64,000 nucleotides of DNA. Origin: a virus (taxonomy: Duplodnaviria > Heunggongvirae > Uroviricota > Caudoviricetes). Of the stretch, positions 3,549 to 62,774 are shown piece by piece. The position numbers and the translations under genes were made by a program. A model generated the notes under the pieces. It was not told where the DNA came from. It saw only the letters and a list, made by a program, of their open reading frames with translations, and searched no databases. The DNA lies in the IMG/VR virus record IMGVR_UViG_3300024246_000004, positions 27,446 through 91,445 of that record. One strand, written 5' to 3'. How positions within the stretch are numbered: position 1 is the first letter of the stretch; each line of letters begins with the position of its first letter.

Positions 3549-3583
3549 CGATCATCGGCAGGATGCGACAGGAGACGGACACC

Positions 3584-3760: not shown

Positions 3761-3792
3761 CGGTCGCGATCCTCGACAGGAAGCAGTGGGAG

Positions 3793-3960
3793 ATGGACAG
3801 CACGGACGTGCTAGTGTCTGAGGTTCCCGACCTCAGGATGATGAGCCTCGCCGATCTTGCGCGGCTGCATTCGGGGAGGGCTCTGCAGAAGGTCGTCGCG
3901 GAGGCCCTGGAGCCCTCCGCCCGGCAGGTCTCCGTGGCGGCGTTCAACTCGTCCATCTAG
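3793..3960 (+). CDS. FxsA-like small protein with FXSXX-COOH C-terminus (...AAFNSSI)
   Basis: 55 aa; leader-like segment LPDLRMMSLADLARL...ALQKVVAEALE followed by AAFNSSI-COOH, the hallmark of the actinobacterial FXSXX-COOH (FxsA) family. Confidence 0.6.
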   Translation: MDSTDVLVSEVPDLRMMSLADLARLHSGRALQKVVAEALEPSARQVSVAAFNSSI

Positions 3961-3966
3961 TTTCAC

Positions 3967-4040
3967 GCGCCCGTAGCTCAGCGGATAGAGCGCCGCCGTC
4001 CTAAGGCGGGCCGTCGCTGGTTCGAATCCAGCCGGGCGCA
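3967..4040 (+). tRNA. tRNA-Arg(CCT)
   Basis: GCGCCCG-TA-GCTC-AGCGGATAG-AGC; anticodon loop GTCCTAA; T-arm GCTGG-TTCGAAT-CCAGC. Confidence 0.8.
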
Positions 4041-4159
4041 CCGTCTCTGGCCATTGTGGATGCGAAAACCTTGCGGTACCCGCCGGGGGCGTGATACGTT
4101 AATCGAGTCGGCAGCCGAAAAGGGTGCGGAAACCCGGATCTCATCGCCGCCGACGCACG

Positions 4160-4345
4160 ACCGATCGGATCCGCTCCAAGGTTGGACGTCTTCCTGTCTC
4201 GGCCCTTGGCGACCGACCGGCGTACCACAAGCACCACCCGGCGATCGTGGCTCGAACTCGAAGTGAGTCCCGAGTCGCCGGTAGCACGGATCGGCGGCTT
4301 CAAGGTTGGGTTTCTGGACTTCTTAGCCCTTGGCCGTCGATCATA
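4160..4345 (+). repeat. Two ~60-nt direct repeats (about 4160-4215 and 4285-4345) sharing GATCGG...CAAGGTTGG...GCCCTTGGC
   Basis: Seen by eye; each copy contains the CCAAGG/CCTTGG inverted pair; no cloverleaf could be folded. Confidence 0.4.
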
Positions 4346-4417
4346 GGTGGGTAGCTCAACTGGTAGAGCGCAGGTCTCCAAAACCTGTCGTTGGGGGTTC
4401 AAGTCCCTCCCCACCTG
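4345..4417 (+). tRNA. tRNA-Trp(CCA)
   Basis: AGGTGGG-TA-GCTC-AACTGGTAG-AGC; anticodon loop CTCCAAA; T-loop TTCAAGT. Confidence 0.8.
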
Positions 4418-4419
4418 CG

Positions 4420-4491
4420 GTGAGTATGGCCGAGCGGCTTAGGCACCGGTTTGTGGAACCGGGCAGACGGGTTCGACCCCCGTTACTCACA
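4420..4491 (+). tRNA. tRNA-His(GTG)
   Basis: Perfect acceptor GTGAGTA/TACTCAC; anticodon arm CCGGT-TTGTGGA-ACCGG; T-arm ACGGG-TTCGACC-CCCGT; a G at position -1. Confidence 0.65.
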
Positions 4492-4631
4492 CGTTCCGTA
4501 GCGTCAGCCTGGTGAGCGGCTACGGAGTTCGGCGAGCGGCACTGACCAACGTCCCAGTACCCAGAAATGGGGATAGAAACAGTCGCCGAATACACGAACG
4601 ACCTGCCCCGACGCGCACGCGGGCAGGCGGT

Positions 4632-4661
4632 CCGCCGAGCCCGATCACTCGGCGGACCGGG
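4632..4661 (+). other. Strong hairpin (11-bp stem GGTCCGCCGAG / CTCGGCGGACC)
   Basis: Perfect inverted repeat in a non-coding spacer of the tRNA array. Confidence 0.45.
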
Positions 4662-4735
4662 AAGTCTGGCGACGGAGTTGGGCCAGACCGGGCGGGCTGA
4701 CGTGGGTTAGGCCTTCCACAAAGTAAACTGAATAC

Positions 4736-4808
4736 GCGCCTGTAGCTCAGCGGAGAGAGCGCCTCACTACGGATGAGGAGGCCGGGGGTTCGAATCCCTC
4801 CAGGCGCA
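4736..4808 (+). tRNA. tRNA-Arg(ACG)
   Basis: GCGCCTG-TA-GCTC-AGCGGAGAG-AGC; anticodon arm CCTCA-CTACGGA-TGAGG; T-loop TTCGAAT. Confidence 0.85.
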
Positions 4809-4809
4809 C

Positions 4810-5545
4810 GAGCGATCGCCGTAGCTCAAAGGCCCGAGAGGACGCCTTATCGGGAGAGCCCCGCTGTACCCCATTAAGGGTGAACGACGGGAGATCCGGC
4901 CGAACCGGCGACGATCCTCCGGGTGTGCTGTACGCCCGGCCAAAAGAGGGACCATGGCCCTCGGCAGCGGCAAGGAGCGAAGGAAGCCTCATCGGGAGGT
5001 GTCTTGACGGCTGGTGATGTGAATGACGAGCCGTCACGTGGGCGAGGGAGCAGATCACACTGTAGCCCGAGCCCTGGAGGTTCGACCCCTCCCCTTTGCA
5101 CGGCAGGTGGCCGCCAGAACCCTTACCTGGCGGACGGAGAGGCCAACCCGGGACAGTGGTACGCGTAGCGGAATGCTCCCCGAGTAAGATCTCCGTACTC
5201 GTAGTAGCGGGCCCTGCGCTTTGACGGGTGGTCGGTTGAGGCAACCACACCGGAGCGTTTGGGGTCGCTCCCCCTCCGGAGATACTGGTTCGAATCCAGT
5301 CCCGTCAGCGCTCCGGCGATTGCAAGCGCCGGTGATGGACACGCGGGTGCGCACTCGTGTGGAATGGTGTACGTGGAGACGGTACGGATAGGGCCCCCTG
5401 AAGGGCCTGATTCCGGGACGGGCGGGTTCGAGTCCCGCAACACCGCGAACGACAGCCAAACAGGGCCCGGTATCCAACATGGGTGCGCTGTCGGTCATGG
5501 CGCCTTAGCTCAGTTGGAAGAGTCTGTCGGACCTGAGCTATATTG
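4810..5545 (+). ncRNA. Zone of tRNA-like elements and fragments that do not fold into standard cloverleaves
   Basis: Three canonical T-arm motifs (GGAGG-TTCGACC-CCTCC near 5085; ACTGG-TTCGAAT-CCAGT near 5295 with a perfect 7-bp acceptor TGACGGG/CCCGTCA spanning 5223-5313; GGCGGG-TTCGAGT-CCCGC near 5445), plus 5-prime fragments GGCCCGGTATCCAAC (5466) and GGCGCCTTAGCTCAGTTGGAAGAG (5499-5535). Confidence 0.35.
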
Positions 5546-5553
5546 TTTCCCGT

Positions 5554-6066
5554 ATGGCTCGATACAGCAAGAATCGGTGCAGATGGACGGATGAACAACT
5601 CAGGGAAGCGGTCGCCAGCAGTCAATCGATCCGCCAGGTCATCGGGATACTCGGCCTGTCGGTGACGGCGGCCGGGAACTGGGGTACGGTCAAAAAGCAT
5701 GTGAGTCGGCTCGGGCTGGACACCTCCCACTGGACGGGGCAATCCTGGGTGGGAACCCGCGAAAACCACCCGGCACGACTCCCTCTTGAACAGATATTGG
5801 TACCAGGTTCAACGTACAGAACTTCTGCGCTTCGAGACCGCCTCATCGGAGCTGGACTCAAAGAATGGCGATGCGAAAGGTGCTTGCGGATCGACTGGGA
5901 GGGGGATCGCATTCCCCTTGAGGTGGATCATGCGAATGGAGTGCCGGACGACCATAGGATCGAGAATCTGCGCTTGCTCTGCCCCAATTGCCATGCGTTA
6001 ACGCCGACATGGCGCGGGCGCAAGAACGCTAGATCATACCACGGCAACGTAGCTGAGAAGGATTAG
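5554..6066 (+). CDS. HNH homing endonuclease (paralog of 2594..3178)
   Basis: C-terminal CERCL...EVDHANGVPDDHRIENLRLLCPNCHALT; preceded directly by a tRNA 5-prime fragment. Confidence 0.75.
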   Translation: MARYSKNRCRWTDEQLREAVASSQSIRQVIGILGLSVTAAGNWGTVKKHVSRLGLDTSHWTGQSWVGTRENHPARLPLEQILVPGSTYRTSALRDRLIGAGLKEWRCERCLRIDWEGDRIPLEVDHANGVPDDHRIENLRLLCPNCHALTPTWRGRKNARSYHGNVAEKD

Positions 6067-6248
6067 CGAGGCTCTGAAAAAGCCTAGAGGCTGGATCGTT
6101 ACCAGTCGTTGCCACGCGGTACAAGCCTGCAAGAAGGCGAGTGCGCAGCTTCGTGTCATAGGCTGCCGAAGACCGATGGCCCTATCGGATGCCATGCTGG
6201 TCGGCTAAGCGAAGCCGCGTCCCCGGCTCGTACCCGGGGGCCGTACCT

Positions 6249-6339
6249 GGAGAGGTCGCCTAGTCCGGTCTATGGCGCCGACCTGCTAAGTCGGTGGGTT
6301 CCGCAAGGGGCCTCATGGGTTCGAATCCCATCCTCTCCG
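6249..6339 (+). tRNA. tRNA-Ser(GCT), long variable arm
   Basis: GGAGAGG/CCTCTCC; anticodon arm CCGAC-CTGCTAA-GTCGG; T-arm ATGGG-TTCGAAT-CCCAT. Confidence 0.8.
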
Positions 6340-6419
6340 CGCAAAACAGTTGGACAGCCCAGCGTGGATGAGATACGTTAGTTCTCGCAGGGGTTCGAGC
6401 CAGGGATAAGCTAGGCGGG

Positions 6420-6466
6420 CCTGTAAAGCCCTACCTTGGAGGTTCGAATCCTCCCGGGCCCACCAA
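6420..6466 (+). pseudogene. tRNA-like minihelix (acceptor GGGCCTG/CGGGCCC plus T-arm GGAGG-TTCGAAT-CCTCC) lacking D and anticodon arms
   Basis: Only 13 nt lie between the acceptor 5-prime strand and the T-arm. Confidence 0.35.
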
Positions 6467-6488
6467 ACCGAGCGAAAGGAGAGTACTG

Positions 6489-6671
6489 ATGGCCAGCAGA
6501 GAGACCAAGGAGCTCCTCGCGGCACTGGACCGGCACCGGGAGTACACGGCGGAGCAGGAACGGATCGCGCACGACAACCTGTTCCGCGTCACGGACCCCG
6601 TCGAGGGAGCCGTCTCGGTGAAGGACACCGGCAAGATCAAGAGGATCCTCAAGCGAACGCGGAACGGCTAG
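6489..6671 (+). CDS. Small hypothetical protein (60 aa)
   Basis: SD GAAAGGAGAG 7 nt upstream of the ATG. Confidence 0.55.
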   Translation: MASRETKELLAALDRHREYTAEQERIAHDNLFRVTDPVEGAVSVKDTGKIKRILKRTRNG

Positions 6672-6717
6672 CACTACCCGTAGTACGCTAATTGACAACT
6701 CCAGAGTGACGCGAAAT

Positions 6718-6788
6718 GCGGATGTAGCTCAATGGTAGAGCGCTACCTTGCCATGGTAGATACGCGAGTTCGATTCTCGTCATCCGCT
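6718..6788 (+). tRNA. tRNA-Gly(GCC)
   Basis: GCGGATG-TA-GCTC-AATGGTAG-AGC; anticodon loop TTGCCAT; U73. Confidence 0.85.
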
Positions 6789-6888
6789 CAACCCGGCGGC
6801 CAGTCTCAGCTCGAAACCCAGAGACCCAACGTCGCCGGACGAGGTGCCCAAGTACCCTCCGAGACTCAAACTCCTCGCGGCACCGCAT

Positions 6889-6963
6889 GTCCCCGTCGTC
6901 TAGCGGTTCCAGGACATCACCCTCTCAAGGTGAAAATCGCCGGTTCGAATCCGGTCGGGGATA
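6889..6963 (+). tRNA. tRNA-Glu(CTC)
   Basis: Glu-type D-arm GTCTAGCGGTTCCAGGAC; anticodon arm TCACC-CTCTCAA-GGTGA. Confidence 0.8.
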
Positions 6964-7017
6964 CTCTCCGGCAGCCAGAATGAGCAGGAAACCCAAGTAC
7001 AGTTCGCTGCCGGACAT

Positions 7018-7091
7018 GGCCCGTTCGTCTAGCGGCCGAGGATCCCACCCCTTCAAGGTGCGAGGCACGGGTTCGAATCCCGTACGGGCTA
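7018..7091 (+). tRNA. tRNA-Glu(TTC)
   Basis: Glu-type D-arm GTCTAGCGGCCGAGGAT; anticodon loop CCTTCAA; T-arm ACGGG-TTCGAAT-CCCGT. Confidence 0.75.
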
Positions 7092-7154
7092 CGGCGTCGC
7101 GGCCACGGCGACAATCGCGGTAGTGGGCGAGCAAGATGCCCGCACAGTGGCAGT

Positions 7155-7228
7155 GCTGTAGTGGCTCAATATGGCGGAGCGTCGCGCTTCCAACGCGAAG
7201 GTCGCAGGTTCGAACCCTGTCTACAGCG
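7155..7228 (+). tRNA. tRNA-Gly(TCC)
   Basis: GCTGTAG/CTACAGC; anticodon arm TCGCG-CTTCCAA-CGCGA. Confidence 0.8.
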
Positions 7229-7229
7229 C

Positions 7230-7301
7230 CGGAATGTGGGGTAATGGTCGCCCGCCTGCCTTGGGAGCAGGTCCACGCAGGTTCGATTCCTGTCATTCCG
7301 A
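7230..7301 (+). tRNA. tRNA-Pro(TGG)
   Basis: C1-G72 acceptor CGGAATG/CATTCCG with A73; anticodon arm CCTGC-CTTGGGA-GCAGG. Confidence 0.75.
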
Positions 7302-7416
7302 CGATCCAAGGGCAAGGATGAGAAGCGGGAACCCAAGGGTAGCGGACATGGTGAATGTATCTAGCCGAGCCGCTGAACTTTCCGTCGGCCAGATACGCCG
7401 GGGGAGCCGCAATCAA

Positions 7417-7490
<74 letters not shown>

Positions 7491-7500
7491 CGTACACTAT

Positions 7501-7573
7501 GCACCTGTGGCCGAGAGGCGAGGCGCTTCCCTGCAAAGGAAGAATGACCCCGGTTCAAATCCGGGCAGGTGCT
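7501..7573 (+). tRNA. tRNA-Cys(GCA)
   Basis: Perfect acceptor GCACCTG/CAGGTGC with U73; anticodon arm CTTCC-CTGCAAA-GGAAG. Confidence 0.8.
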
Positions 7574-7628
7574 CGATTCGGTGGCCATATACGGTACGAG
7601 ATCCACGCCAAGGCTCGCCACCGGACAC

Positions 7629-7699
7629 GCCCTTGTAGCTCAATGGCAGAGCACTCGTTTCGTAATCGAGGGACCGGCGTCCGATTCGTCGCAGGGGCT
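7629..7699 (+). tRNA. tRNA-Thr(CGT)
   Basis: GCCCTTG-TA-GCTC-AATGGCA-GAGC; anticodon loop TTCGTAA; T-loop TCCGATT. Confidence 0.65.
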
Positions 7700-7753
7700 C
7701 AGATCGGCAGCAATGTAGCTTTCGAAGACCATAACCGGCTCGCTGTCGGTCAT

Positions 7754-7826
7754 GGGGGTGTAGCTCAGGGGTTAGAGCGCTTCCCTGATAAGGAAGAGGT
7801 CGGAGGTTCAAATCCTCCCATCCCCA
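7754..7826 (+). tRNA. tRNA-Ile(GAT)
   Basis: GGGGGTG-TA-GCTC-AGGGGTTAG-AGC; anticodon arm CTTCC-CTGATAA-GGAAG. Confidence 0.85.
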
Positions 7827-7830
7827 CTTA

Positions 7831-7905
7831 GGGCCCGTAGCTCAGTCAGGTTAGAGCAGCTTCCTTTTAAGTAGCGGGTCGCAGGTTCGAATCCTGTCGG
7901 GCCCA
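7831..7905 (+). tRNA. tRNA-Lys(TTT)
   Basis: GGGCCCG/CGGGCCC; anticodon loop CTTTTAA; T-arm GCAGG-TTCGAAT-CCTGT. Confidence 0.75.
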
Positions 7906-7922
7906 CCCGCTAGACTCTTGCT

Positions 7923-8363
7923 GTGATCACCGGTAAGAGCTGTGGCAAGTGCGGTGAAGTGAAGAACCTTGAAGAATTCTCAAGGAACTCGCGTAGAAAA
8001 GATGGCCGCCAAACATGGTGCAAGAAATGTGCCCATGCACGCAGAAATGAATGGGCCAAAGAGAATCGCGATAAATGTCGGACTTACCGCCTCTACGACG
8101 CCCATGGAATCCGTATCGCCGACAAGCAGCGCATGTATGAAGAGCAAGGCGGCCTCTGTGCGGCCTGCCAGAAGAAGGAAGCTGTCGTAGTCGATCACGA
8201 CCATTCCTGCTGCCCCAACAACCGGGGCGGCTGTGGGAAGTGCGTGCGAGCGCTCCTTTGTAACCGCTGCAACCTCCTCGCGGGGTTCTTTGAGACCGAC
8301 CCGGAGGCTTGCGAGAGCGTCCAGGCGTATCTTTTGCGGTACAGTAAGACCAACCCTCCGTAA
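7923..8363 (+). CDS. Endonuclease VII-like (T4 gp49-type) nuclease
   Basis: N-terminal CGKCG Zn motif, central VVDHDHSCCP, then CNRCNLLAG: the signature of the Endonuclease_7 family. Confidence 0.7.
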   Translation: MITGKSCGKCGEVKNLEEFSRNSRRKDGRQTWCKKCAHARRNEWAKENRDKCRTYRLYDAHGIRIADKQRMYEEQGGLCAACQKKEAVVVDHDHSCCPNNRGGCGKCVRALLCNRCNLLAGFFETDPEACESVQAYLLRYSKTNPP

Positions 8364-8426
8364 CTCAGCGGCCAGAGTTGCGCCCTCTTAAGGCGAAGGT
8401 CGCCGGTTCGAATCCGGCCGGGGGGA
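8354..8426 (+). tRNA. tRNA-Lys(CTT)
   Basis: Acceptor CCCTCCG/CGGGGGG; D-arm ACTC-AGCGGCCA-GAGT; anticodon loop CTCTTAA; T-arm GCCGG-TTCGAAT-CCGGC; its 5-prime end overlaps the last codons of the endonuclease VII gene. Confidence 0.6.
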
Positions 8427-8529
8427 CGAGGCGTGCGGCACGCCGCGCGGAGATTAGGGCTAGCCCCCCAGGGGAGCCCCTCCAAAAAGCCAACTCCCTA
8501 TACTAGTTCGGGACGAGGCAGCCGCATAA

Positions 8530-8602
8530 GGGCCCGTAGCTCAGCTGGTAGAGCACTCGCCTCGCACGCGAGAGGTCCGGGGTTCGACTCCCCGCCGGTC
8601 CA
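8530..8602 (+). tRNA. tRNA-Ala(CGC)
   Basis: G3.U70 wobble in the acceptor (Ala identity element); anticodon arm CTCGC-CTCGCAC-GCGAG; T-loop TTCGACT. Confidence 0.75.
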
Positions 8603-8669
8603 CGATGCGTAGCGGCGCGCAACGGGCTAAGTAACCCGGAAGCCATGCTAGCCACTGGCAGCCGCGTAA

Positions 8670-8740
8670 GGGGTTGTAGCTCAACGGTGAGCACCTCGTT
8701 TGCATCGAGGCGGACGCGGGTTCGAATCCCGTCAACTCCA
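8670..8740 (+). tRNA. tRNA-Ala(TGC)
   Basis: G3.U70; anticodon arm CCTCG-TTTGCAT-CGAGG. Confidence 0.8.
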
Positions 8741-8876
8741 CTGGGCGGCATGCGGCATGCCGTGGGGAGCGCAGCTAGGAACTGCGCCGTCTGAATGAAG
8801 ACCACTCCCCGGAAGACGAAGGTAGGCAACCGCAAGGGTCCTAGCCTGAAGTGGGGAATCTGGAGTCAGCCGCATT

Positions 8877-8952
8877 GGGCCTATAGCTCAGCCCGGCAGA
8901 GCGCCCGCTCGGCAGGCGGGAGGTTTCGTCGGTTCGAATCCGACTAGGTCCA
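8877..8952 (+). tRNA. tRNA-Ala(GGC)
   Basis: G3.U70; anticodon arm CCCGC-TCGGCAG-GCGGG; T-arm GTCGG-TTCGAAT-CCGAC. Confidence 0.65.
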
Positions 8953-9160
8953 CTACCGCCGCGTGGTCGGCGGGGAGCGACGCATGTCGGAGATTGCGCG
9001 CTCGCAGGACAAGGCTTACCCGTGTTGGATTCCGACTAGGCACGGGAGGTAGCGTGTCCATCCGCACCGCCCCGCAACGGGCTGCCGGACCGGGTTGTGC
9101 CGGTTAGGCTGCAATACCGAGTGAGTCGCCCGGCACTCGTTAATCCCTACCGGCGAACCT

Positions 9161-9248
9161 GGAGAGGTCGGCCCCGCTGGCGGAGGCACTGTCCTGGAAT
9201 GGCAGCGGCCGTTGATTCGGTTCGTGGGTTCGATTCCCACTCTCTCCG
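9161..9248 (+). tRNA. tRNA-Ser(GGA), long variable arm
   Basis: GGAGAGG/TCTCTCC; anticodon arm CTGTC-CTGGAAT-GGCAG; T-loop TTCGATT. Confidence 0.7.
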
Positions 9249-9547
9249 CGAACTCGGCGACCAGTCTTGGAACGCAGCTCACTCTGCCTTCGTTGCCGAG
9301 TCTCACTGTCCGACAGCCAAGCGGTTCCGCGCACCATGTGCCGGGCGCTGTCGGGCTCCATGCGGGCCCTGGGGAGGTAACCTGACGGTCCACGGTGCAC
9401 CAGCGACCGTCAGCAGCTCCGTCCACTCGGAGCGCCCGCTCGATCGACAGCCATAGTGGCCTCGCACCCCGCGCTCCCTACGCTGTCGAGCTCAACCCGG
9501 TGGCCATAGCGAGAACCCTCCCACAGGACACTCCCGCCGCCGGTCGT

Positions 9548-9621
9548 GGTCCTGTAGAGCAGCTGGAGTGCTCGCCACCCTGTCAAGGTGGAGGTCGCGG
9601 GTTCAAGTCCCGTCAGGACCG
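9548..9621 (+). tRNA. tRNA-Asp(GTC)
   Basis: GGTCCTG/CAGGACC with G73; anticodon arm CCACC-CTGTCAA-GGTGG; T-loop TTCAAGT. Confidence 0.85.
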
Positions 9622-9625
9622 CTAA

Positions 9626-9698
9626 GGCGACGTAGCTCAGCGGATAGAGCGCTTCCCTCCGAAGGAAGAGGCCGTGGGTTCAAATCCCACCGTCGCCA
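9626..9698 (+). tRNA. tRNA-Arg(CCG)
   Basis: GGCGACG/CGTCGCC; anticodon arm CTTCC-CTCCGAA-GGAAG. Confidence 0.8.
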
Positions 9699-9699
9699 C

Positions 9700-9782
9700 G
9701 GAAGGTCCGACACTGGTGCGTCAAGCGTCTTCGAAAGGCGTGGCGGTGAAAGCCGTTAGCGGTTCGAGTCCGCTACCTTCCG
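9700..9782 (+). tRNA. tRNA-Ser(CGA), long variable arm
   Basis: GGAAGGT/ACCTTCC; anticodon loop TTCGAAA; T-arm AGCGG-TTCGAGT-CCGCT. Confidence 0.65.
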
Positions 9783-9834
9783 CTACCAGCAGCCGAGGTC
9801 AACGCGTATCCCAAAATCGTTCTGCTGCTGGTTT

Positions 9835-9918
9835 GGAGAGTTGCCGGAACGGTAACGGCGCCGCCTTGAAAGCGGACGGCAGGGAAACCTGGAGCAGGTT
9901 CGACCCCTGCACTCTCCG
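9835..9918 (+). tRNA. tRNA-Ser(TGA), long variable arm
   Basis: GGAGAGT/ACTCTCC; anticodon loop CTTGAAA; variable-arm hairpin CAGG-GAAA-CCTG; T-loop TTCGACC. Confidence 0.7.
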
Positions 9919-9923
9919 CGCGG

Positions 9924-9994
9924 TCCCCGCTAGTTCAATGGCAGAACGCTCGACTGTTAATCGAGAAGTACCTGGATCGATACCAGGGCGGGGA
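9924..9994 (+). tRNA. tRNA-Asn(GTT)
   Basis: TCCCCGC/GCGGGGA; anticodon arm CTCGA-CTGTTAA-TCGAG; unusual T-loop ATCGATA. Confidence 0.65.
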
Positions 9995-10012
9995 GCATGA
10001 AAGGGGGCGGTT

Positions 10013-23512: not shown

Positions 23513-24031
23513 ATGGCAGCACTACCCGCCGACGCCAAAGCCATGACACAGGTCGAGCGGCGCCACAAAGCCATCGAGATGCGCCGCGTCGGCATCCCCT
23601 GGGAGAAAATCGCCGAAGAATGCGGCTACTCCACCCCCGCCGTCGCAGCGGCCGACATCTACAAAGTACTCAGCGACCGCGTCCGGGAAATGGGCGACGC
23701 CGTCTCCGCGCTGCGCTCTTTGGAAGCCGACAAACTCGACGCCATGGAACGCGTCATCATCAACGTGATGCGCAAACCCCATATCCTTGCGCAGCAAGGC
23801 CGCATCATCATCGACCCCGCCACCGGGAAACCGGCAGAGGATCCGGGCCCCGTCTTCCAATGCGTAGACCGGCTCCTGCGCATCGCCGAACGCAGAGCGA
23901 AACTCCTCGGAATCGACAACCCCGTCAAAACGCAAGTCGAAATCAAGGCGGTGGGCGTTGACGCCGAAATTGCCGGAATCCTGGCAGGAATGGTCACCGG
24001 AAGAGAAGAAGAAACTCCTCGCGACGCTTAA
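23513..24031 (+). CDS. Terminase small subunit (putative)
   Basis: Position directly upstream of the large terminase; HTH-like N-terminus, oligomerisation-like C-terminus. Confidence 0.55.
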   Translation: MAALPADAKAMTQVERRHKAIEMRRVGIPWEKIAEECGYSTPAVAAADIYKVLSDRVREMGDAVSALRSLEADKLDAMERVIINVMRKPHILAQQGRIIIDPATGKPAEDPGPVFQCVDRLLRIAERRAKLLGIDNPVKTQVEIKAVGVDAEIAGILAGMVTGREEETPRDA

Positions 24032-25379
24032 ATTCGCCCAATGGCGTCAAGCCGCCCGCACCGACCAGCTACCCCCGCGCGGCCCGTGGGTCACCCTCTA
24101 CCTGCGCGGCGGACGCGGAAGCGGCAAAACATGGTCCGGAGGCCATATCCTCCTGGAGCGCGTCCTAGCCGACCCCGAACCGGGAGAATGGGCGGTCGTC
24201 GCACCGACGTACGAAGATGCGTGGGCCACCTGCTGCGAAGGCCCCAGCGGCATCCTCGCGGCACTGGGAACCAACGCCGTGCAGGTCAAACAGCACGACT
24301 CGCCCCTCGTACGGTACTGGAACCGCACCATGGGCGAACTACGCATGCGCAACGGACACCTCATCCGGTTCGCCTCCGCCGACGACGGAGCGCTGAGGAT
24401 CCAGGGCAAGAACCTCAAAGGCGTATGGGCCGACGAAATCGGCCTCTGGGACAAATGGCAGACCGCCTGGGACGAATCCATCCAATACGCGGTACGCATG
24501 GGCGACGCGATCCGCATCGTCACCGGCACACCCAAATCGAGCCGCAAAGCCCGCGAACTGATCAAACGGCTCATGCTCGACCCCGCCGTACACGTGCAAG
24601 TCCTGCGCACCGTAGACAACGCCGCCAACCTGAGCCCCGCGTTCATGGCCTCCGTCGTCGCCGCCGCGAAAGGCACCCGGCTAGAGCGGCAAGAACTCGA
24701 AGGAGAACTCCTCGAAGATGTAGACGGCGCACTGTGGACCCTGGAGATGATCGAACGCGGACGCGTAGACGAACACCCCGAACTGAGCCGCATCGTCGTC
24801 GCCGTAGACCCCGCCGTCACCGGCAGCGAAACCAGCGACGAATCGGGAATCGTCGTCGTCGGAGAACACCAAGGCCACGGCTACGTACTCGCCGACTACT
24901 CCATGGTCGGCTCACCCCAAGAAGTCATGGAGAAAGTCGTCTGGGCCTACCACGAACACCAAGCGGATAGGGTGCTCGCCGAAGTCAACAACGGCGGCGA
25001 CTACATCGGCACCCTGCTGCGCGTCGTCGATTCCTCCGTGCCCTACCAGGCCGTGAGGGCGACCAGAGGCAAACTGCTGCGCGCCGAACCGGTAGCGGCG
25101 CTCTACGAACAAGGCCGCATGCACCACGTCGGACGGTACCTCGATCTTGAAGAACAGATGATCGTCTGGCACCCCGACAGCTCGAAAAGCCCCGACCGCC
25201 TAGACGCATTGGCATGGGCCGTAGCAGGACTACGCACCCTCACCGCAGGATCATGGGCACAAGCCCACGGCATCGTCTACTGCGACGAATGCCAACAGCC
25301 ATTCATGATCAAACTACACCCGCTGAACTGCCCCAACTGCCGCACAACACACGGAAAAGGCACCGAAATAGGGAGCTGA
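23958..25379 (+). CDS. Terminase large subunit
   Basis: Walker A-like GGRGSGKT near the N-terminus and a nuclease-type C-terminal half; TTG start overlaps terS by 74 nt. Confidence 0.7.
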   Translation: MTPKLPESWQEWSPEEKKKLLATLKFAQWRQAARTDQLPPRGPWVTLYLRGGRGSGKTWSGGHILLERVLADPEPGEWAVVAPTYEDAWATCCEGPSGILAALGTNAVQVKQHDSPLVRYWNRTMGELRMRNGHLIRFASADDGALRIQGKNLKGVWADEIGLWDKWQTAWDESIQYAVRMGDAIRIVTGTPKSSRKARELIKRLMLDPAVHVQVLRTVDNAANLSPAFMASVVAAAKGTRLERQELEGELLEDVDGALWTLEMIERGRVDEHPELSRIVVAVDPAVTGSETSDESGIVVVGEHQGHGYVLADYSMVGSPQEVMEKVVWAYHEHQADRVLAEVNNGGDYIGTLLRVVDSSVPYQAVRATRGKLLRAEPVAALYEQGRMHHVGRYLDLEEQMIVWHPDSSKSPDRLDALAWAVAGLRTLTAGSWAQAHGIVYCDECQQPFMIKLHPLNCPNCRTTHGKGTEIGS

Positions 25380-39442: not shown

Positions 39443-39892
39443 TTAGCGCTTACTGTACTGCGGGGCCTTGCGCGCCTTCTTGAGACCGGCCTTCTTGCGC
39501 TCGATGACGCGCGAGTCGCGGGTCAGCAGCCCCGCCGCCTTGAGCGCGGGCCGGTTCGCGTCACGGTCCGCCGCGTTCAGCGCGCGGGCGATGCCGAGGC
39601 GCAGGGCGTCCGCCTGGCCGGAGATGCCGCCGCCGTCGATCCGGGCGACGACGTGGCATGTGCCGTCCAGCCCGAGCAGGCGCAGCGCGGTGCGGGCGCT
39701 CTGCTGGTGCACCTTGTTCGGGAAGTACTCCTCCAGGGAGCGCCCGTTGATCTTCCAGGTGCCGTAGCCGGGCATCACCCAGACGCGGGCCACGGCCTCC
39801 TTGCGGCGGCCCGTGCCGTACGACGCGGTGAGCAGCGAGCCGGTCGGCGTCGCGGCGTCCTCGACGGGGGTTTCAGTGACGTAAGTTTCCAT
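39443..39892 (-). CDS. rpsI: Ribosomal protein uS9 homolog
   Basis: ...[18 protein letters not shown]...C-terminal ...[18 protein letters not shown] is the canonical S9 pattern; SD AGTAAGGATGATC-ATG. Confidence 0.8.
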
Positions 39893-39900
39893 GATCATCC

Positions 39901-40320
39901 TTACTGCGCGACCTGGGACAGCTGGTACGGCTCGGGGCGCTGTGCGGCGTGCGGGTGCTCCGGGCCGCCGTAGACCTTGAGCTTCTTCAGCACCTGGCGG
40001 CCGAGGGTGTTCTTGGGGAGCATGCCGCGCACGGCCTTCTCGACGGCCTTGCGGGAGTCCTTGTCGATCAGCTCGCCGTACTTGACCGAGCGCAGACCGC
40101 CCGGGTAGCCGGAGTGCCGGTAGGCCAGCTTGTCCTCGCGCTTGTTGCCGGACAGGTAGACCTTGTCGGCGTTGATGATGACCACGAAGTCGCCGGTGTC
40201 CACGTGCGGGGCGAACTGCGGCTTGTGCTTTCCGCGCAGCAGGATGGCAGTCTGGCTGGCCAAGCGGCCGAGCGGGATGTCGGCGGCGTCGATGACGCGC
40301 CAGGTCTGTTCGGCAGACAT
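39901..40320 (-). CDS. rplM: Ribosomal protein uL13 homolog
   Basis: [54 protein letters not shown]... is the canonical L13 pattern; SD GGAAGGAAGATC-ATG; stop abuts the rpsI start, as in the bacterial rplM-rpsI operon. Confidence 0.8.
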
Positions 40321-40354
40321 GATCTTCCTTCCGGATTGTCGGACTAACGTATCA

Positions 40355-40525
40355 CTAGTCGTGGAAGATCGCAGCCAGCAGGACCATGGCGAAGATCCAG
40401 GTGACGAAGAGTCCGACGGCCAGGCCACCGAGGACCGCGAGCGCCATCGCGGGCGCCGACAGGTGGAACAGCACCAGCGGCAGCATCGTGCACACCCCGA
40501 TGAACACCCCGGCCAATACGATCAT
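40355..40525 (-). CDS. Small membrane protein (56 aa)
   Basis: SD AAAGGAG; two hydrophobic helices. Confidence 0.5.
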
Positions 40526-54231: not shown

Positions 54232-54335
54232 AGCAACCCTTTCGTGTCGATGCCCAATGACGTTTTCTGCGTGTGCCTTGCACGGATTGTGGTCATCGAG
54301 CCGGACTAACGTATCACACGAGAAGCGGGGTGTCC

Positions 54336-57300
54336 ATGTCGAACTCCGCGCGCCGCGTACTCCAGTCGGTCAAGGCCGTGAAGCCGTCACCGGCGGTTCC
54401 GGGCTCCGGCTACGGCGTGCCCGGCGGTTCGTACGGATCCGGCATGTCCCCGCTCGTGGCCTCCTACGCCATGCCCGGCATGCCCTACGGCGAGCGGACC
54501 TACGGCACCGCGCTGCCCCGCGACCCGATGGAATTCCTGTCGGGTATGTTCTCGCCGCTCTCCCCGATCCAGCCAGTCGCCATCGACCAGCCGAAGCCCG
54601 GGTTCGATCGGCCCGAGCCGCGCCAGTTCGAGTATCCCGTCAGCTGGAACATGCCGATAGGAGTTCCCGGCTCCGAAGGCCTCAAGCTCGCTAGTTTCGC
54701 CAACCTGCGCTCCATCGCGGACATCTACTCCGTGGCGCGCGCCTGCATCAAACTGCGCATCCAGGAAATCCTCGGCCTGGAGTGGGACATCATCCCCACG
54801 AAAGACGCCGAGAAGAACATGCGCGGCGACGACAAGAAGCACTCGAATTTCCAGAAGCGCCGCAACGAGGCCATGGAATTCTGGCGCAACCCGGACCCGA
54901 ACTACGGCTCGTTCGAGTCCTGGCTCAGCGCCGTCCTTGAGGACATCCTCGTCGTCGATGCGCTCTCGCTCTACGTCCACCCGACGCGGATGCGCGGCAA
55001 GGGCCTGCTCGGCTCCGACGTGGCGTCCCTCGAAGTGATCGCGGGCGAAACCATCAGGCCCCTGCTGGACGTGTCCGGCGGACGGCCCAAGCCACCCAAC
55101 CCCGCGTTCCAGCAGTATATGTACGGGGTTCCGCGCACCGACCTGATGACGGTCATCAACGAAGAGGACCTCGACGGCCTCTCGGACGCGATGGTGGCCG
55201 AATACCGGGGCGACCAGCTGCTTTACCTGCCATATTTCCGCCGTTCTTGGACGCCGTACGGCTTCTCCCCCGTGGAGCAGGCCCTTATTCCGGCCATGAT
55301 GGGAATCCAGCGGCAGAGCTGGCAGCTGGACACCTACTCCGAGGGCACCGTCCCTGCGGTATTCATTTCCGCCGGTGACACGAATTCCACGCCGAACCAG
55401 CTGCGCGAATTGCAGGATGCACTCAACGCCATGGCCGGGGACCCGGCCTGGAAGCACAAGATCATTGTCCTGCCGGGCGGCTCGAAGATCGACCCGATGA
55501 AGCCGCAGGCCCTGGCCGACGCCTTCGATGAGATCATGATGACCCAGATGTGCATGGCGTTCGACGTCATGCCGATGGAGCTGGGCATCGCGCCGAAAGT
55601 CTCGACGACGCAGAGCCCCGGCGCCGCCAACCAGATGGCTAAGGCGAGCGAGCAGGTCAACCAGCGCAAGGCCCTGCGTCCCATGCTCAAGTGGTTGAAG
55701 GCAAGCGTCTTCGACTTCCTCTTGCAGAAGGTATGCAAGCAGGACGACATGCAGTGGATGTGGGAGGGCCTGGAGGAGGGCGTTGACGAGGAGTCCCAGG
55801 TCGGCCTCCTGATCCAGGAGATCAGCTTCGGCCTGCGCTCGATCGACGAAGCGCGCATCTCTCGCGGCGAACAGCCGTGGGGCCTGCCGCTGACCTCCGA
55901 CCCGGTCTACGCCACCCCCAACGGCCTGATGCCCATCGGTTCCATCGATCCCGCCACCGGCATGCCCGCCGCCCTCCAGCCCGAAGTCGCCCCCGGCTCC
56001 GCGCTGCCCGGCGCGAACATGCCCAACGGCGCGTTGGCCGGTACGACGCCGAGCGGCAACCAGTCCTCGACGCGCACCGTCAAGCCGGGCAAGCCGGTGC
56101 GGCTGCCGACCGCCTCCGTGCCGGGCCCCAAGGCCAAGCCGAAGCCGACCAAGCCGTCCGCCGGACCGCGCGTCTCCCCGTCGCACACCGCCCGGGGGTC
56201 CGCGTCGAAAGGTATCGACGGGAAGGCGGCCCTCAAAGAGCTCGACCTGATCCGCAGGCAGCTCAAGAGGGACCGCTCGATCGAGGACTGGCAGCCCAAG
56301 GACGTGCCGCAGCAGGTCATGGACATGCTGCGCGCCGACCTGTGGCGGATGGACGCCGCTGAGGCGATCATGAAGGCCCGCGATGGCGTGTACAAGCTGC
56401 TCAAGGAGCGCGCCGGACAGGGCACCGCCGACCGCGAGAGCGCGATCATGCACGTGCAGTCCCGCGTCGCCACCGACCTGCGCACCCTCGCAGACCAGGT
56501 GGAGAACGGGAAACTGTCCACGGCCGACTTCCTCCAGCGGGCCACCGACACGATGCGAGCCGGAATCCGCGCCGGTCTCCAGGCCGGTGCATACGCCGCT
56601 ATAGATCAGGGCCGCACCGAGAAGCACACCCAGCTGCGCATCCAGGGCGAGACGTGGTCCAACATCGTCAAGGACGACGGCGACGAGGGCGACGGCTACG
56701 ACGAGGCGCTGCACGGCGACTCGCCCTACAACGCCTACCTCGACCAGCTGGCCAGCACGGAAGCCGACCGGCAGTCCGGCTACCTCAGCGGCCTGCTGCG
56801 CGACATCCTTGGCGCGCTGGGCATGAAGGACTGGCTGGACAAGCTCGGCTCGCGCCTGGACCTGTACGCCGCCCAGGTGCGCTCCGCGTACGAACAGGGC
56901 TACGGCTACACGTACGCGGCGATGAACCCGTCCGGCTCGGTGGTCTACACCTGGTTCACCACGTCCGCCAAGCCGTGCGCACTGTGCTCGGCGAAGGACG
57001 GCCAGCAGTTCAGCGAAGACCAGCTGCCCGGTTTCCCGGGTCAGGGCGGCTTCGGCGACCCCGGCGACATCGCGGGGGCCGAACTCGCCATCTGCATGGG
57101 CGGCGTGAACTGCAAATGCTACCTCAGTGCCACCACCATCCCCGACGGAACCGGGGGCGGTGGGTTCTTCAGCGCGGCCCGCAACGCCTGGAACGCCGCG
57201 CTCAGCAGCATCCTGGGCAAATCCGCCCAGGAGATCACCAGCCACGACCACATCAGCCATTCCCACGCGGATGAGACGCACGAGGTCTATGCATACCTCG

Positions 57301-57695
57301 CGCGCCACTACCCGGCGGGTTCGCTGGAGTGGGTCAAGGCAGCGCGTTGGCATGGACCGGTGGAGATCAAGCTGGACCGGATCAACATGGGCCGCCGCGC
57401 TGGCGGGGCGAGGGATCCGAACAAGGTCAGGATGATCTCCTTCGCGATCGAGGACGGCCACAAGATCGACCCGATCGTGGTCGTGCGGGTGCCCGGGAAG
57501 AACAAGTACCAGGTCGCCGACGGCTGGCACCGCACGCTCGCCGTCAAGGACAGCGGGCGCAAGTCGATCATGGCCTGGGTCGGCGACGTGGACAGCGACT
57601 CCACCTTCTCCCCCGAGGAGATGGGCTCCGAGAAGCTGAACACCGACAAGAAGTCTCCGGGCCTTGAGAACAACCGCAAGGACTCCGGTGGCTAA
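54336..57695 (+). CDS. Portal protein fused to a MuF-like head-morphogenesis region and a C-terminal ParB-like nuclease domain (1119 aa)
   Basis: About 500-aa portal-like N-terminus first in the structural unit; Pro/Ala-rich linker; Cys-containing MuF-like segment (CALCSAKDG); C-terminal ...IVVVRVPGKNKYQVADGWHRTLAV... is ParB-N-like. Confidence 0.6.
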   Translation: MSNSARRVLQSVKAVKPSPAVPGSGYGVPGGSYGSGMSPLVASYAMPGMPYGERTYGTALPRDPMEFLSGMFSPLSPIQPVAIDQPKPGFDRPEPRQFEYPVSWNMPIGVPGSEGLKLASFANLRSIADIYSVARACIKLRIQEILGLEWDIIPTKDAEKNMRGDDKKHSNFQKRRNEAMEFWRNPDPNYGSFESWLSAVLEDILVVDALSLYVHPTRMRGKGLLGSDVASLEVIAGETIRPLLDVSGGRPKPPNPAFQQYMYGVPRTDLMTVINEEDLDGLSDAMVAEYRGDQLLYLPYFRRSWTPYGFSPVEQALIPAMMGIQRQSWQLDTYSEGTVPAVFISAGDTNSTPNQLRELQDALNAMAGDPAWKHKIIVLPGGSKIDPMKPQALADAFDEIMMTQMCMAFDVMPMELGIAPKVSTTQSPGAANQMAKASEQVNQRKALRPMLKWLKASVFDFLLQKVCKQDDMQWMWEGLEEGVDEESQVGLLIQEISFGLRSIDEARISRGEQPWGLPLTSDPVYATPNGLMPIGSIDPATGMPAALQPEVAPGSALPGANMPNGALAGTTPSGNQSSTRTVKPGKPVRLPTASVPGPKAKPKPTKPSAGPRVSPSHTARGSASKGIDGKAALKELDLIRRQLKRDRSIEDWQPKDVPQQVMDMLRADLWRMDAAEAIMKARDGVYKLLKERAGQGTADRESAIMHVQSRVATDLRTLADQVENGKLSTADFLQRATDTMRAGIRAGLQAGAYAAIDQGRTEKHTQLRIQGETWSNIVKDDGDEGDGYDEALHGDSPYNAYLDQLASTEADRQSGYLSGLLRDILGALGMKDWLDKLGSRLDLYAAQVRSAYEQGYGYTYAAMNPSGSVVYTWFTTSAKPCALCSAKDGQQFSEDQLPGFPGQGGFGDPGDIAGAELAICMGGVNCKCYLSATTIPDGTGGGGFFSAARNAWNAALSSILGKSAQEITSHDHISHSHADETHEVYAYLARHYPAGSLEWVKAARWHGPVEIKLDRINMGRRAGGARDPNKVRMISFAIEDGHKIDPIVVVRVPGKNKYQVADGWHRTLAVKDSGRKSIMAWVGDVDSDSTFSPEEMGSEKLNTDKKSPGLENNRKDSGG

Positions 57696-60902: not shown

Positions 60903-62774
60903 GTGGCGGCCCCTCACCCCGTAAGGAGGGGTATGGCAGTCAACGAAGTCGTCAGGGCGCTCGGAGCAGCCCCCGACGAGCGCTGGGTCGCGTCGGACAC
61001 CGACGCCACGCGCTACAGCTACGCCGCCGAGATGCTCGGCGAGAAGATGCCCACCCTGGTCAAGGGCGCCGGTTACGCCCGTCCCGGCGGCAACAAGCCG
61101 CTGAGCGACGACGACCAGATCTTCAAGGCGTCGATGAAGGCTGAGACGGCCTTCATGAAGTCGATGAAGAACGGCATCGACAACCCCGAGGGCGTCATCA
61201 AGTCGTTCTCCCCCGAGTTCGCCGGACACTTCGGCGCGTTCATGGCGGCCTCGCCGCAGAACCAGCAGATGGCCCGCATGGTGGACTCCCTGTCCGCCCA
61301 GCTGTCCACCATCCTGGACAAGTCCGTCACGCTGACAAGCCCTCTGGGCTCGGGTTTCGTGCCGTTCAACCTGGTCAGCCCCTCCCGGCTGATCTACCCG
61401 GTCTACTCGCCGATCCGCAACAAGATGCCCCGCACCCAGGGCCAGGGCACCTCGTACCGCGCGAAGGTGATCACGGGTGTCAGCGGCTCGCAGACCGGCC
61501 CGTCCGGCGGCAAGTTCCTCGACCTCGCCATCCCGGAGCTCGTGCAGGGCGGCGGCTCGTTCTCCAACTGGCCCCTGAACCTGCCCGGTGCGGGCACTCA
61601 GGACGCTGTTGACCTCAACATCCCGTACAAGTTCTTCGGCCAGTCCGAGAACCTGTCCTGGCTGGCCCAGTTCTCGGGCCAGGGCTTCGAGGACATCAGC
61701 GCGCTGGCGAACCTCCTGCTGCTCCAGGAGTTCATGCTCAACGAGGAGGCGATGTTCCTCGAAGGAACGTCCGTCGCCTACGTCGCGCCGACCAACCCGA
61801 CGCTGACGGCCCGCGCCGCGAACGCCGGTGAGACCGCCCTGACCGGCGTGACCACCAACGTGTTCGTCAAGGTCACCGGCGTCAACTACTTCGGCGAGAC
61901 GGTCGCGCAGGCCTCCGGCGCTTCCGTCGCCTGGTCCGCTGGCCAGGTCGTGGACGTCAGCCTGGTGCCGGAGTCCGGCGTCGTGTCCTACAACATCTAT
62001 GTGACCACCGGTGCGTCTGCGGGCACGTACTTCATCATGGCCTCCGGCGTCGGCGGCCTGAACTTCACCCTCCAGGGCGCGCTGCCGACCTCCGGCGCGA
62101 ACCCGCCGTCCTCGGACACCACGTCCTCGACGACGTACCGCCTCGAAGGCATCATCCCGACGCTGACCGGCCACTCCGCCGGTTCGTCCAACCCGTACCC
62201 GAGCAACTGGCAGGGCGGCTACGTCAACCAGTCGGTCGGCGACACCCTCAAGACGTCGGTCATCAACAACGCCCTCCAGGCGATGTGGGACGGCACCGGC
62301 GCGGGCATCAGCACCTACGGTTCGTTCCGCGCGGACCCGGCCGAGCTGATCGCCGAGGGCGGCGACGTCATGCGCCTGTCCAACGACATCGTGCAGACCG
62401 GCGCCAACACGAACTACCGCCTGTTCATCGACCAGGGCGAGGTCCCGGGCACGCGCCTCGGCGCGGCGGTGAGCGAGTTCCAGAACCCGATCACCCGCTC
62501 CGTCGTGCGCATCGTCGTGCACCCGTGGCTCACGCAGGGCACCGCCCTGCTCATGAGCTACACCCTGCCGATGGCGTGGTCGAACGTCAGCAACTGCTGG
62601 GAGTTCAACACCGTTCAGGACTACCTGAGCATCTCCTGGCCCGTGATCGACGCGACCTTCCGGTACTCGCTGTTCACGTACGGCGCCATGATCGCCAACG
62701 CGCCGCAGTACTCCGGTCTGCTGTCCGGCATCCAGAAGACCGACCGTTCCGGCTCTACCGGAACCTGGTCGTAA
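60903..62774 (+). CDS. Major capsid protein (putative, 623 aa)
   Basis: Sits directly after the protease-scaffold gene; large Gly/Ser/Thr-rich beta protein. Confidence 0.5.
   Translation: MAAPHPVRRGMAVNEVVRALGAAPDERWVASDTDATRYSYAAEMLGEKMPTLVKGAGYARPGGNKPLSDDDQIFKASMKAETAFMKSMKNGIDNPEGVIKSFSPEFAGHFGAFMAASPQNQQMARMVDSLSAQLSTILDKSVTLTSPLGSGFVPFNLVSPSRLIYPVYSPIRNKMPRTQGQGTSYRAKVITGVSGSQTGPSGGKFLDLAIPELVQGGGSFSNWPLNLPGAGTQDAVDLNIPYKFFGQSENLSWLAQFSGQGFEDISALANLLLLQEFMLNEEAMFLEGTSVAYVAPTNPTLTARAANAGETALTGVTTNVFVKVTGVNYFGETVAQASGASVAWSAGQVVDVSLVPESGVVSYNIYVTTGASAGTYFIMASGVGGLNFTLQGALPTSGANPPSSDTTSSTTYRLEGIIPTLTGHSAGSSNPYPSNWQGGYVNQSVGDTLKTSVINNALQAMWDGTGAGISTYGSFRADPAELIAEGGDVMRLSNDIVQTGANTNYRLFIDQGEVPGTRLGAAVSEFQNPITRSVVRIVVHPWLTQGTALLMSYTLPMAWSNVSNCWEFNTVQDYLSISWPVIDATFRYSLFTYGAMIANAPQYSGLLSGIQKTDRSGSTGTWS

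Follow-up and report, generated by a model that had tools for sequence, protein, structure and literature searches.

The window, a 64,000-nt stretch of a Caudoviricetes virus genome (IMG/VR record IMGVR_UViG_3300024246_000004, positions 27,446 to 91,445), carries a pair of bacterial-type ribosomal protein (r-protein) genes, rplM and rpsI, encoding uL13 and uS9. The pair is carried by the phage and is not a host flank. It derives from an actinobacterial rplM-rpsI operon that was reduced to bare coding sequence and given phage-type start modules with a Shine-Dalgarno (SD) sequence and an ATG. As judged from substitution patterns along its sequence, the cassette is a three-part mosaic in which an old stub forms the 5' end of rplM and is followed by a young, host-like rplM body and by an old rpsI. 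The function favored here, with a little more confidence than doubt, is that of a domesticated auxiliary cassette of the phage whose products are putatively expressed and incorporated into newly made ribosomes.

Both genes match their families far beyond chance. uL13 is recognized by PF00572 (9e-45; 152 bits, with a cut-off of 23.8) and by the rplM_bact equivalog TIGR01066 (186.7 bits, with a cut-off of 93; model positions 10 to 140). uS9 is recognized by PF00380 (1.5e-43; 148.6 bits, with a cut-off of 22.5) over model positions 1 to 121 of 121 and by the NCBIfam equivalog NF001099 (173.1 bits, with a cut-off of 112). An inspection of the letters alone, referred to here as the sequence-only reading, had named L13 and S9 in these two minus-strand reading frames (Table 1) and had pointed out the C-terminal tail of S9; the profile matches bear out the former, and the tail is indeed there, with the same sequence as in cellular homologues. 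The order is rplM and then rpsI. The rpsI start of the public gene caller yields a protein that is an exact match to P0001 in the public protein collection, and an alternative start at 39898 (39443-39898, minus strand) yields 151 amino acids (aa). The gap between the genes measures 8 nt from the first of these starts and 2 nt from the second. For rplM, no alternative in-frame start exists upstream of 40320 before the preceding gene.

The surroundings of the pair are those of a phage. The terminase gene lies ∼15 kb and the portal gene ∼14 kb away, one on each side, head and capsid-like genes are found at 58 to 63 kb, and phage genes lie at distances of 23 and 34 nt, with conservation in a related phage as described below. 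The closest cellular loci show the order rpsM-rpsK-rpsD-rpoA-rplQ-truA...rplM-rpsI-glmM; apart from the pair, none of these genes, including the upstream chromosomal neighbor truA and the downstream one glmM, is found in the window. The pair is part of a long leftward phage operon. The called genes around it, r-proteins excepted, are small leftward genes that match no Pfam family, in agreement with the earlier description of phage-style neighbors. The exact uS9 sequence is found on two contigs, one of 91,445 bp and one of 42,832 bp; the latter is a Logan assembly of SRR7687014 and is 100% identical to window positions 29443 to 49892. With the trimming and the divergence of uS9 described below, the proposal of a phage-carried, diverged pair has held up, and the combination named there as the sign of host DNA, near-identity to the host operon together with host-derived flanks, was not found.

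The bacterial operon has been cut back on all sides. The conserved leader of ∼200 nt upstream of bacterial rplM shows no similarity at the cassette, where a 34-nt spacer follows a phage membrane-protein gene instead; the rplM start module stands in place of this leader and the bacterial GTG start, and the first 8 rplM codons are missing. According to the DNA alignment, a deletion of ∼95 nt took the spacer between the bacterial genes along with ∼18 codons at the beginning of rpsI, and the SD and ATG of rpsI at the junction arose from former rpsI coding sequence. As the spacer measures 26 to 46 nt in bacteria of the donor lineage, the tight junction is a product of the deletion and not, as had been supposed, a retained bacterial feature; the bacterial gene order, in contrast, is the same as in Actinomycetota loci, as the sequence-only reading had stated. 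At the 3' end, homology to bacteria reaches as far as the rpsI stop codon and no further, and the 3' untranslated region (UTR) is gone. The N-terminal ∼8 residues missing from uL13 hold a T-Y-x-P-K-P motif found in all 120 aligned actinobacterial homologues (alignment A2), with columns that are 94 to 100% conserved; solved bacterial uL13 chains have the motif as well, and alignments of the phage protein to all solved bacterial uL13 chains in the PDB begin at chain residue 12 or 13. The acidic N-terminal extension of uS9 is shorter by the ∼18 codons.

The start module shared by the two genes, AAGGA[A/T]GATCATG, has four occurrences in the window if one mismatch is allowed, compared to 0.03 expected, and three of these four are at plausible gene starts. 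SD-like cores are found at 26 of the 47 called gene starts and GATC-ATG at only 2, those of rplM and rpsI. The start architecture that had been described as common to the neighboring genes is thus common with regard to the SD and restricted to the pair with regard to GATC-ATG. A third copy of the module, AAGG-N-TGATCATG, is located at 23425-23437 (minus strand), where the open reading frame (ORF) 22789-23595 has an internal ATG, and suggests that this frame may truly start at 23427 and encode 212 aa. A scan for promoters and terminators around the pair gave counts near the shuffle expectation.

The donor lineage of the cassette is, by sequence comparison, that of the Catenulisporales (Actinocrinis-like). 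uL13 is 88 to 92.5% identical to the Actinocrinis/Actinospica-type loci and up to 91% identical to MAGs (metagenome-assembled genomes) of Actinocrinis, Actinospica, and Catenulispora, the best genomes, compared to at most 78% with Streptomyces. It is placed within the Catenulisporales in 200 of 200 neighbor-joining (NJ) bootstraps; the NJ trees and Nei-Gojobori estimates given here rest on short genes with biased GC content at third codon positions. The terminal branch of uL13 measures 0.059, compared to a mean of 0.052, relative-rate tests are mostly nonsignificant, and the pairwise ratio of nonsynonymous to synonymous substitution rates (dN/dS) to the closest genomes (L024, L025, and L027) is 0.24 to 0.36. 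By these measures, uL13 behaves in its evolution as a cellular gene does.

Among 5.8 billion proteins, none is more than 76% identical to uS9. Its core shows 72 to 75% identity with the Catenulisporales proteins, compared to 85 to 100% among these themselves, and its terminal branch is the longest in the NJ tree (0.216, with a mean of 0.040). Tajima tests count 16 to 20 changes unique to the phage compared to 2 to 5 in the ingroup (P = 0.0002 to 0.017), and pairwise dN/dS is 0.33 to 0.53. Owing to the long branch, NJ assigns no settled position to uS9. In a ranking of rpsI DNA, the top 8 of 83 loci all belong to the Catenulisporales, and amino acid identity is 74% with this order compared to 69% with other orders; rpsI is thus weakly tied to the Catenulisporales as well. 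The host of the phage, which is uncultivated and attributed to soil actinobacteria, is probably an Actinocrinis-like member of this order.

The two genes differ at silent sites. Compared to L024, the Actinocrinis-like MAG Actinomycetota bacterium GM_EKS_MAG_00002, dS is 0.16 in rplM and 0.53 in rpsI, and third-position mismatches amount to 15 of 134 in rplM compared to 42 of 123 in rpsI (P < 1e-4), whereas pairs of cellular loci give P values of 0.07 to 1.0. A maximum-chi-square breakpoint lies near the rplM-rpsI junction (P ≤ 0.003). Across 58 genomes, the third-position difference of rpsI from the Catenulisporales is 0.315, at an inter-order baseline of 0.318 to 0.323, and that of rplM is 0.185 with a minimum of 0.112, which is the level found within an order. 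Codon positions 1 and 2 of uS9 differ by 0.155, compared to 0.133 between cellular orders. A second breakpoint is found inside rplM after aligned nt 51 (permutation P ≤ 0.001) and separates the two rplM tracts of the mosaic (Table 1). Recent capture followed by fast evolution had been considered for the divergence of uS9; this reading was revised and rejected because the silent sites show a saturated rpsI beside a young rplM body. Most parsimoniously, the rplM body would have been overwritten recently, through recombination with the host chromosome, in an old cassette already resident in the phage. Gene conversion is favored because a larger number of events would be required for a recent capture flanked by two segments that are independently old or hypermutated.

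The conserved columns changed in uS9 belong to the N-terminal extension, the globular domain, and the beginning of the tail. Of the 87 columns that are at least 90% conserved in Actinomycetota, 8 are altered (T5V, R38W, V66A, P69A, D80H, G95D, K119A, and F122L), all of them at or before residue 122; cellular sequences deviate at a mean of 0.8 and a maximum of 6 of these columns. G95D, K119A, F122L, R38W, P69A, and D80H hit positions that are 95 to 100% conserved in 117 uS9 homologues, and most of these six positions are also conserved in the solved chains of C. acnes and Mycobacterium. The other 79 columns are retained, as are 60 invariant columns, among them most of the tail (alignment A1). 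Of the conserved core motifs (GRRK..ARV, GGGxSGQAGA, and LKKAGF.TRD), the elements GRRK and GGG..GQA are kept, to be weighed against the six substitutions just named. The tail itself, 19 residues from residue 131 to the C terminus and ending in SKR, is identical to that of actinobacterial homologues. With silent sites saturated and codon positions 1 and 2, the 79 columns, and the tail kept, uS9 therefore appears to be still constrained. An AlphaFold2 model reaches a predicted local distance difference test score of 89 to 96 over residues 21 to 120, and its best Foldseek matches are uS9 chains, with a root mean square deviation of 1.0 to 2.3 Å over ∼100 residues and a TM score of up to 0.95. 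The model is consistent with a retained fold, which is a weak test because the underlying multiple-sequence alignment consists of cellular homologues.

A 118,920-bp IMG/VR contig is collinear with the window, with 70% identity of the portal protein, 90% of the capsid-like protein, and 71% of an RNA ligase. In the related phage L008 (IMGVR_UViG_3300044706_000074), an unrelated ORF of 454 aa (13927-15291, plus strand) without a Pfam family replaces the segment of uL13, uS9, and the downstream 78-aa gene, which is absent from this phage together with the pair. The flanks of this slot show ∼73% DNA identity to L008 on both sides; on the upstream side, the 56-aa gene aligns with L008 positions 13662 to 13826 (55% by tblastn and 73% in DNA). 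The slot marks a hotspot of cargo exchange between conserved flanks, and since these flanks enclose an unrelated ORF in the relative, the cassette is accessory cargo in a variable slot.

Further relatives of the pair were sought in viral collections. When 50,697 phage records were searched by megablast with the 4 kb surrounding the pair, no match was obtained, and scans of IMG/VR with each protein found nothing. The tblastn relatives of both proteins among phages were rejected, as they show at most 63% identity and are all small unannotated or host-like records. The only IMG/VR match of the uL13 alignment, L104 (IMGVR_UViG_3300023371_002249, 5953-6808), was rejected as host flank; it holds a full-length rplM-rpsI with normal N termini that follows directly on a lysis cassette and lies at the edge of the contig. 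Many short unannotated GenBank records labeled as phages of Listeria, Staphylococcus, Enterococcus, and E. coli likewise carry host-like rplM-rpsI, and viral databases thus hold host contamination with this operon. P0002 and P0005, which had seemed to be closer uS9 relatives, are most likely assembly artifacts: these proteins of 191 to 204 aa, from contigs under 1 kb, carry a tandem duplication of the N-terminal half that inflates similarity scores.

The functions of the two proteins are established from E. coli. Here, uL13 is indispensable and belongs to the proteins on which the first step of 50S assembly depends (PMC10931766). It also represses the translation of rplM-rpsI autogenously through the 5' UTR, and the operon is under stringent control (PMC10931766). 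uS9 is a secondary protein of the 30S head that stabilizes uS7 and is needed for uS10 (PMC10931766). In a delta-srmB strain, under-production of L13 and S9 limits the assembly of the large subunit (PMC6736130). As neither protein is among the exchangeable r-proteins that dominate the viral examples (PMC6375957), the pair, if functional, would have to act by new assembly.

The proposed mechanism of the auxiliary cassette starts with phage transcripts. Both proteins would be made from mRNA without the host leader and would in this way escape the control that the host exerts on its own operon, namely, stringent control and autogenous repression via the leader as known in E. coli. uL13 and uS9 would then enter subunits assembled during infection rather than being exchanged into mature ribosomes. 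The young rplM tract would represent a conversion patch from a recent host chromosome that keeps uL13 compatible with the host. Two outcomes may be envisaged: ribosome production could be sustained when the r-protein synthesis of the host is shut down, or 30S heads could be formed with a phage-specific globular domain of uS9 and unchanged P-site contacts of its tail. In both genes, the reading frame is intact and the SD good, and dN/dS stays below 1 in pairwise comparisons, which rest on one phage copy; a related phage is devoid of the pair.

Several points weigh against this mechanism. The pair is known from one phage genome, in two assemblies that possibly stem from the same sample. It is missing from the closest related phage, and no r-proteins were found at 14 more distant metagenome loci from an RNA ligase scan, which are too distant to inform on the slot; the pair is therefore dispensable for the lineage. 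The loss of the universally present N terminus of uL13 might impair assembly, as could the changes in uS9, which hit four invariant positions (among these changes G95D of the GGGxSGQAGA motif). The 8 deviating columns of uS9 exceed those of any cellular sequence, and the net charge of one segment has shifted from between -3 and -6 to +1. Supplying 2 of about 54 r-proteins promises no obvious rise in ribosome output. The gene-conversion reading is a parsimony argument and no demonstration. Finally, the autogenous control by uL13 known from E. coli is putative in Actinobacteria, and neither the window nor the donor loci gave an L13 leader in a search with Rfam.

That the pair is a nonfunctional passenger, a captured host fragment decaying as neutral cargo at least with regard to uS9, is rather unlikely. 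Its absence from the closest relative, the missing uL13 N terminus, and the behavior of uS9 (the excess of changed conserved columns, the long branch with its Tajima imbalance, and the elevated dN/dS) would fit such a passenger. The intact ORFs, the good SDs, and the precise trimming to coding sequence, however, argue for selection for expression and not for decay. Moreover, uS9 still holds 74% identity, the 79 columns, and a perfect tail at saturated silent sites, and the rate of uL13 equals the cellular rate.

A more far-reaching reading, which should be regarded as unlikely to a somewhat higher degree, joins the divergent uS9 and the refreshed uL13 in one scheme of phage-specific ribosomes. 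uS9 would be a long-term resident with a charge-reversed surface helix, a lost acidic N-terminal extension, and changed invariant residues and would be installed in the 30S heads built during infection. uL13, renewed by repeated gene conversion from rplM of the current host, would fit the host 23S rRNA and force the swap by repressing the leader-controlled rplM-rpsI mRNA of the host. If true, this would be the first virus to replace a core, nonexchangeable ribosomal protein through de novo assembly and the first case of ongoing phage-host recombination inside a ribosomal protein gene.

The regulatory part of this scheme can also be taken by itself as a hijack of the host operon, a reading that is improbable. 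Here, phage uL13 would act mainly outside the ribosome and repress the translation of the host rplM-rpsI mRNA via its leader, the leaderless phage mRNA would escape, and new 30S subunits would receive phage uS9 in place of host uS9. The repressor role of uL13 in E. coli (PMC10931766) speaks for this reading, and so does the donor lineage, where a conserved leader of ∼190 nt with a helix over the SD and GUG start precedes rplM, compared to the leaderless phage cassette. uL13 is kept host-like and uS9 is divergent, and the hijack would also account for the joint retention of the two genes. Against it stand the putative status of such control in Actinobacteria, with L13 leaders that vary between phyla (PMC7247131) and no Rfam match here, and a possible effect of the truncated uL13 N terminus on RNA binding; the reading rests entirely on inference. 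The candidate L13 leader, which belongs to no described family and is absent from Rfam, is located upstream of rplM in the Actinocrinis/Actinospica-type loci (positions 1290 to 1475 in L024 to L027 and 5823 to 6008 in L002 and L003), and a long-range pairing, GGGCACGG / CCGUGCCC, would hide its SD and GUG start in a helix. Its alignment, which counts against the hijack too, shows almost no covariation, with sequences too alike to show it.

The tail of uS9 contacts the anticodon stem-loop of the P-site tRNA. The sequence-only reading had accordingly proposed that the phage S9 tunes decoding with the tRNA set of the phage. Altered P-site contacts serving decoding or initiation in this way are very improbable: the phage does have 36 tRNAs, but the idea is disfavored because the tail is identical to the host type from residue 131 on and all deviations at conserved columns are at residue 122 or earlier.

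Host chromosomal DNA, as a prophage flank or a chimeric phage-host assembly, has next to no probability left, since the 93.5% DNA identity of rplM to a MAG and the known host operons at the edges of viral contigs such as L104 and in small GenBank "phage" records are already contradicted by the distances to terminase and portal, the adjoining phage genes, the loss of truA, glmM, leader, spacer, and both N termini, the low identity of uS9 to any known protein, and the identical second assembly.

Virus-encoded r-proteins were already known; what distinguishes the present case is that the uL13 family is involved, that two genes form one cassette, that both proteins have a core-assembly role, and that the history is a mosaic one. 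Mizuno et al. searched 424,225 viral contigs with 106 profiles, including Ribosomal_L13, and found uS9 on 6 uncultivated viral contigs and listed uL13 on none (Nat Commun 10:752, 2019; PMC6375957). More than 99% of the r-protein-bearing contigs in that survey carried a single one, and viral r-proteins were enriched for the exchangeable, loosely bound bS21, bL12, bL9, bL31, and bL33 (PMC6375957). Huge phages carry S1, S4, S21, and L7/L12. The window pair resembles the surveyed genes in being bacterial r-protein genes captured by a phage, those of the survey being kept under purifying selection, and differs from them in combining, in one operon-derived cassette, the essential early-assembly core protein uL13 with the assembly-dependent head protein uS9. 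A full-text search found no report of a phage L13 in a literature of incomplete coverage, and uL13 appears not to have been reported in phages before.

With the Actinomycetota loci (L024 to L027, L002, L003, and L005), the cassette shares gene order, orientation, and the uS9 tail; in contrast to these, it lacks the leader, truA, glmM, and the spacer, has both N termini trimmed, and lies in a phage operon. Streptomyces phages of cluster BE1, such as Riptide, have genomes of 132 kb with 39 tRNAs and annotated uL24 and bL12 C-terminal-domain proteins (PMC12509530). They are likewise large, tRNA-rich actinophages with r-protein genes, and their uL24 is also an early-assembly protein; unlike the window, they carry other r-proteins, annotated at the level of HHpred, and have low GC contents, compared to 62 to 70% in the window. 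The phage collection yielded no DNA or close protein similarity to the window. For PhiMa05, six r-proteins were claimed, with the operon-like neighbors bS1-bL21-bL27 and uL11-uL1 (PMC13157829), and that claim was criticized for a missing terminase and coherent morphogenesis module and for abundant cellular genes (PMC13623518). The window is similar in presenting several r-protein genes in a phage-labeled sequence; unlike PhiMa05, it combines a terminase, a portal, and head genes with an almost complete lack of other housekeeping genes, and it therefore shows the features by which that critique recognizes viral r-proteins (PMC13623518).

The accepted generalization holds that phage r-proteins are single, loosely bound, and exchangeable, like bS21 and bL12, and the uL13-uS9 cassette widens this repertoire. 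As neither protein enters mature ribosomes, the cassette would imply that ribosome biogenesis is a target of some phages during infection. The mosaic offers a concrete host prediction and a testable case of recombination between a phage and a housekeeping gene of its host. The case also shows marks that separate true phage r-protein genes from the host-flank contamination common in viral databases.

Table 1. Features of the window, with strands given in parentheses in the third column
Feature	Position	Strand	Description
rplM (phage uL13)	39901..40320	(-)	139 aa, ATG start
rpsI (phage uS9)	39443..39892	(-)	149 aa, start of the public gene caller; well-spaced AAGGA SD
rplM stop/rpsI start junction	39890..39902	(-)	TAA, then AAGGATGATCATG; alignment with L005, L025, L024, and L002
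rplM initiation module AAGGAAGATCATG	40318..40330	(-)	12/13 nt identical to the rpsI module
"Young" rplM tract	39901..40260	(-)	95% DNA identity (18 mismatches/360 nt) to L024
"Old" 5' rplM stub	40261..40320	(-)	14 mismatches/51 aligned nt (27%) to L024; phage-specific start
Upstream phage gene, 56-aa hydrophobic protein	40355..40525	(-)	34 nt from rplM; bounds the variable slot on the left
Downstream phage gene, 78 aa	39184..39420	(-)	No family match; starts 23 nt after the rpsI stop, GGAGG SD
107-aa phage gene	38868..39191	(-)	Right border of the variable slot; L008 15419-15709, tblastn 52%, DNA 73.6%
Array of 36 tRNA genes	1093..9996	(+)	ARAGORN; 33 confirmed by Rfam
Terminase large subunit	23958..25379	(+)	phrog_979 8.8e-34; tblastn to annotated Arthrobacter, Microcystis, and Caulobacter phage terminases
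Portal protein	54273..57695	(+)	PF04860 6e-13; phrog_2662 1.9e-47; tblastn to annotated portals
Capsid-like protein	60903..62774	(+)	phrog_13692 1.9e-63; weak SU10_MCP match; 90% identity with the related IMG/VR phage

The phage genome shows further features apart from the pair. A distance of 29 kb, with a long block of small leftward genes, separates the terminase gene from the portal gene. The portal ORF of 1140 aa has a C-terminal extension of ∼600 aa with a weak ParB-like match at residues 1046 to 1109. The tRNA array, a large translational cargo that forms the context of the r-protein pair, covers 19 amino acids, and tRNA-Tyr was not seen in the window; two calls made only by ARAGORN outside the array (21554-21655 and 31849-31921, both minus strand) fall within coding regions and probably represent false positives.

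The leftward arm (43158-54231 and 31069-31464, both minus strand) encodes RlaP, Pnkp (AAA_33 plus HAD_PNKP), an Rnl1-like RNA ligase, and a Thg1-like enzyme, together with a second RNA ligase, a metallophosphoesterase, and a 131-aa RF-1-domain (ArfB-like) protein. This cargo for RNA repair and rescue suggests a phage equipped against tRNA-cleaving or ribosome-stalling defenses. The phage tRNA-His (4419-4492, plus strand) has the acceptor stem GTGAGTA/TACTCAC and an A at position 73, and the single nucleotide that distinguishes it from tRNA-Trp is the G at position -1. The combination of A73 with the Thg1-like enzyme of the phage (49599-50576) resembles the eukaryotic route to G-1.

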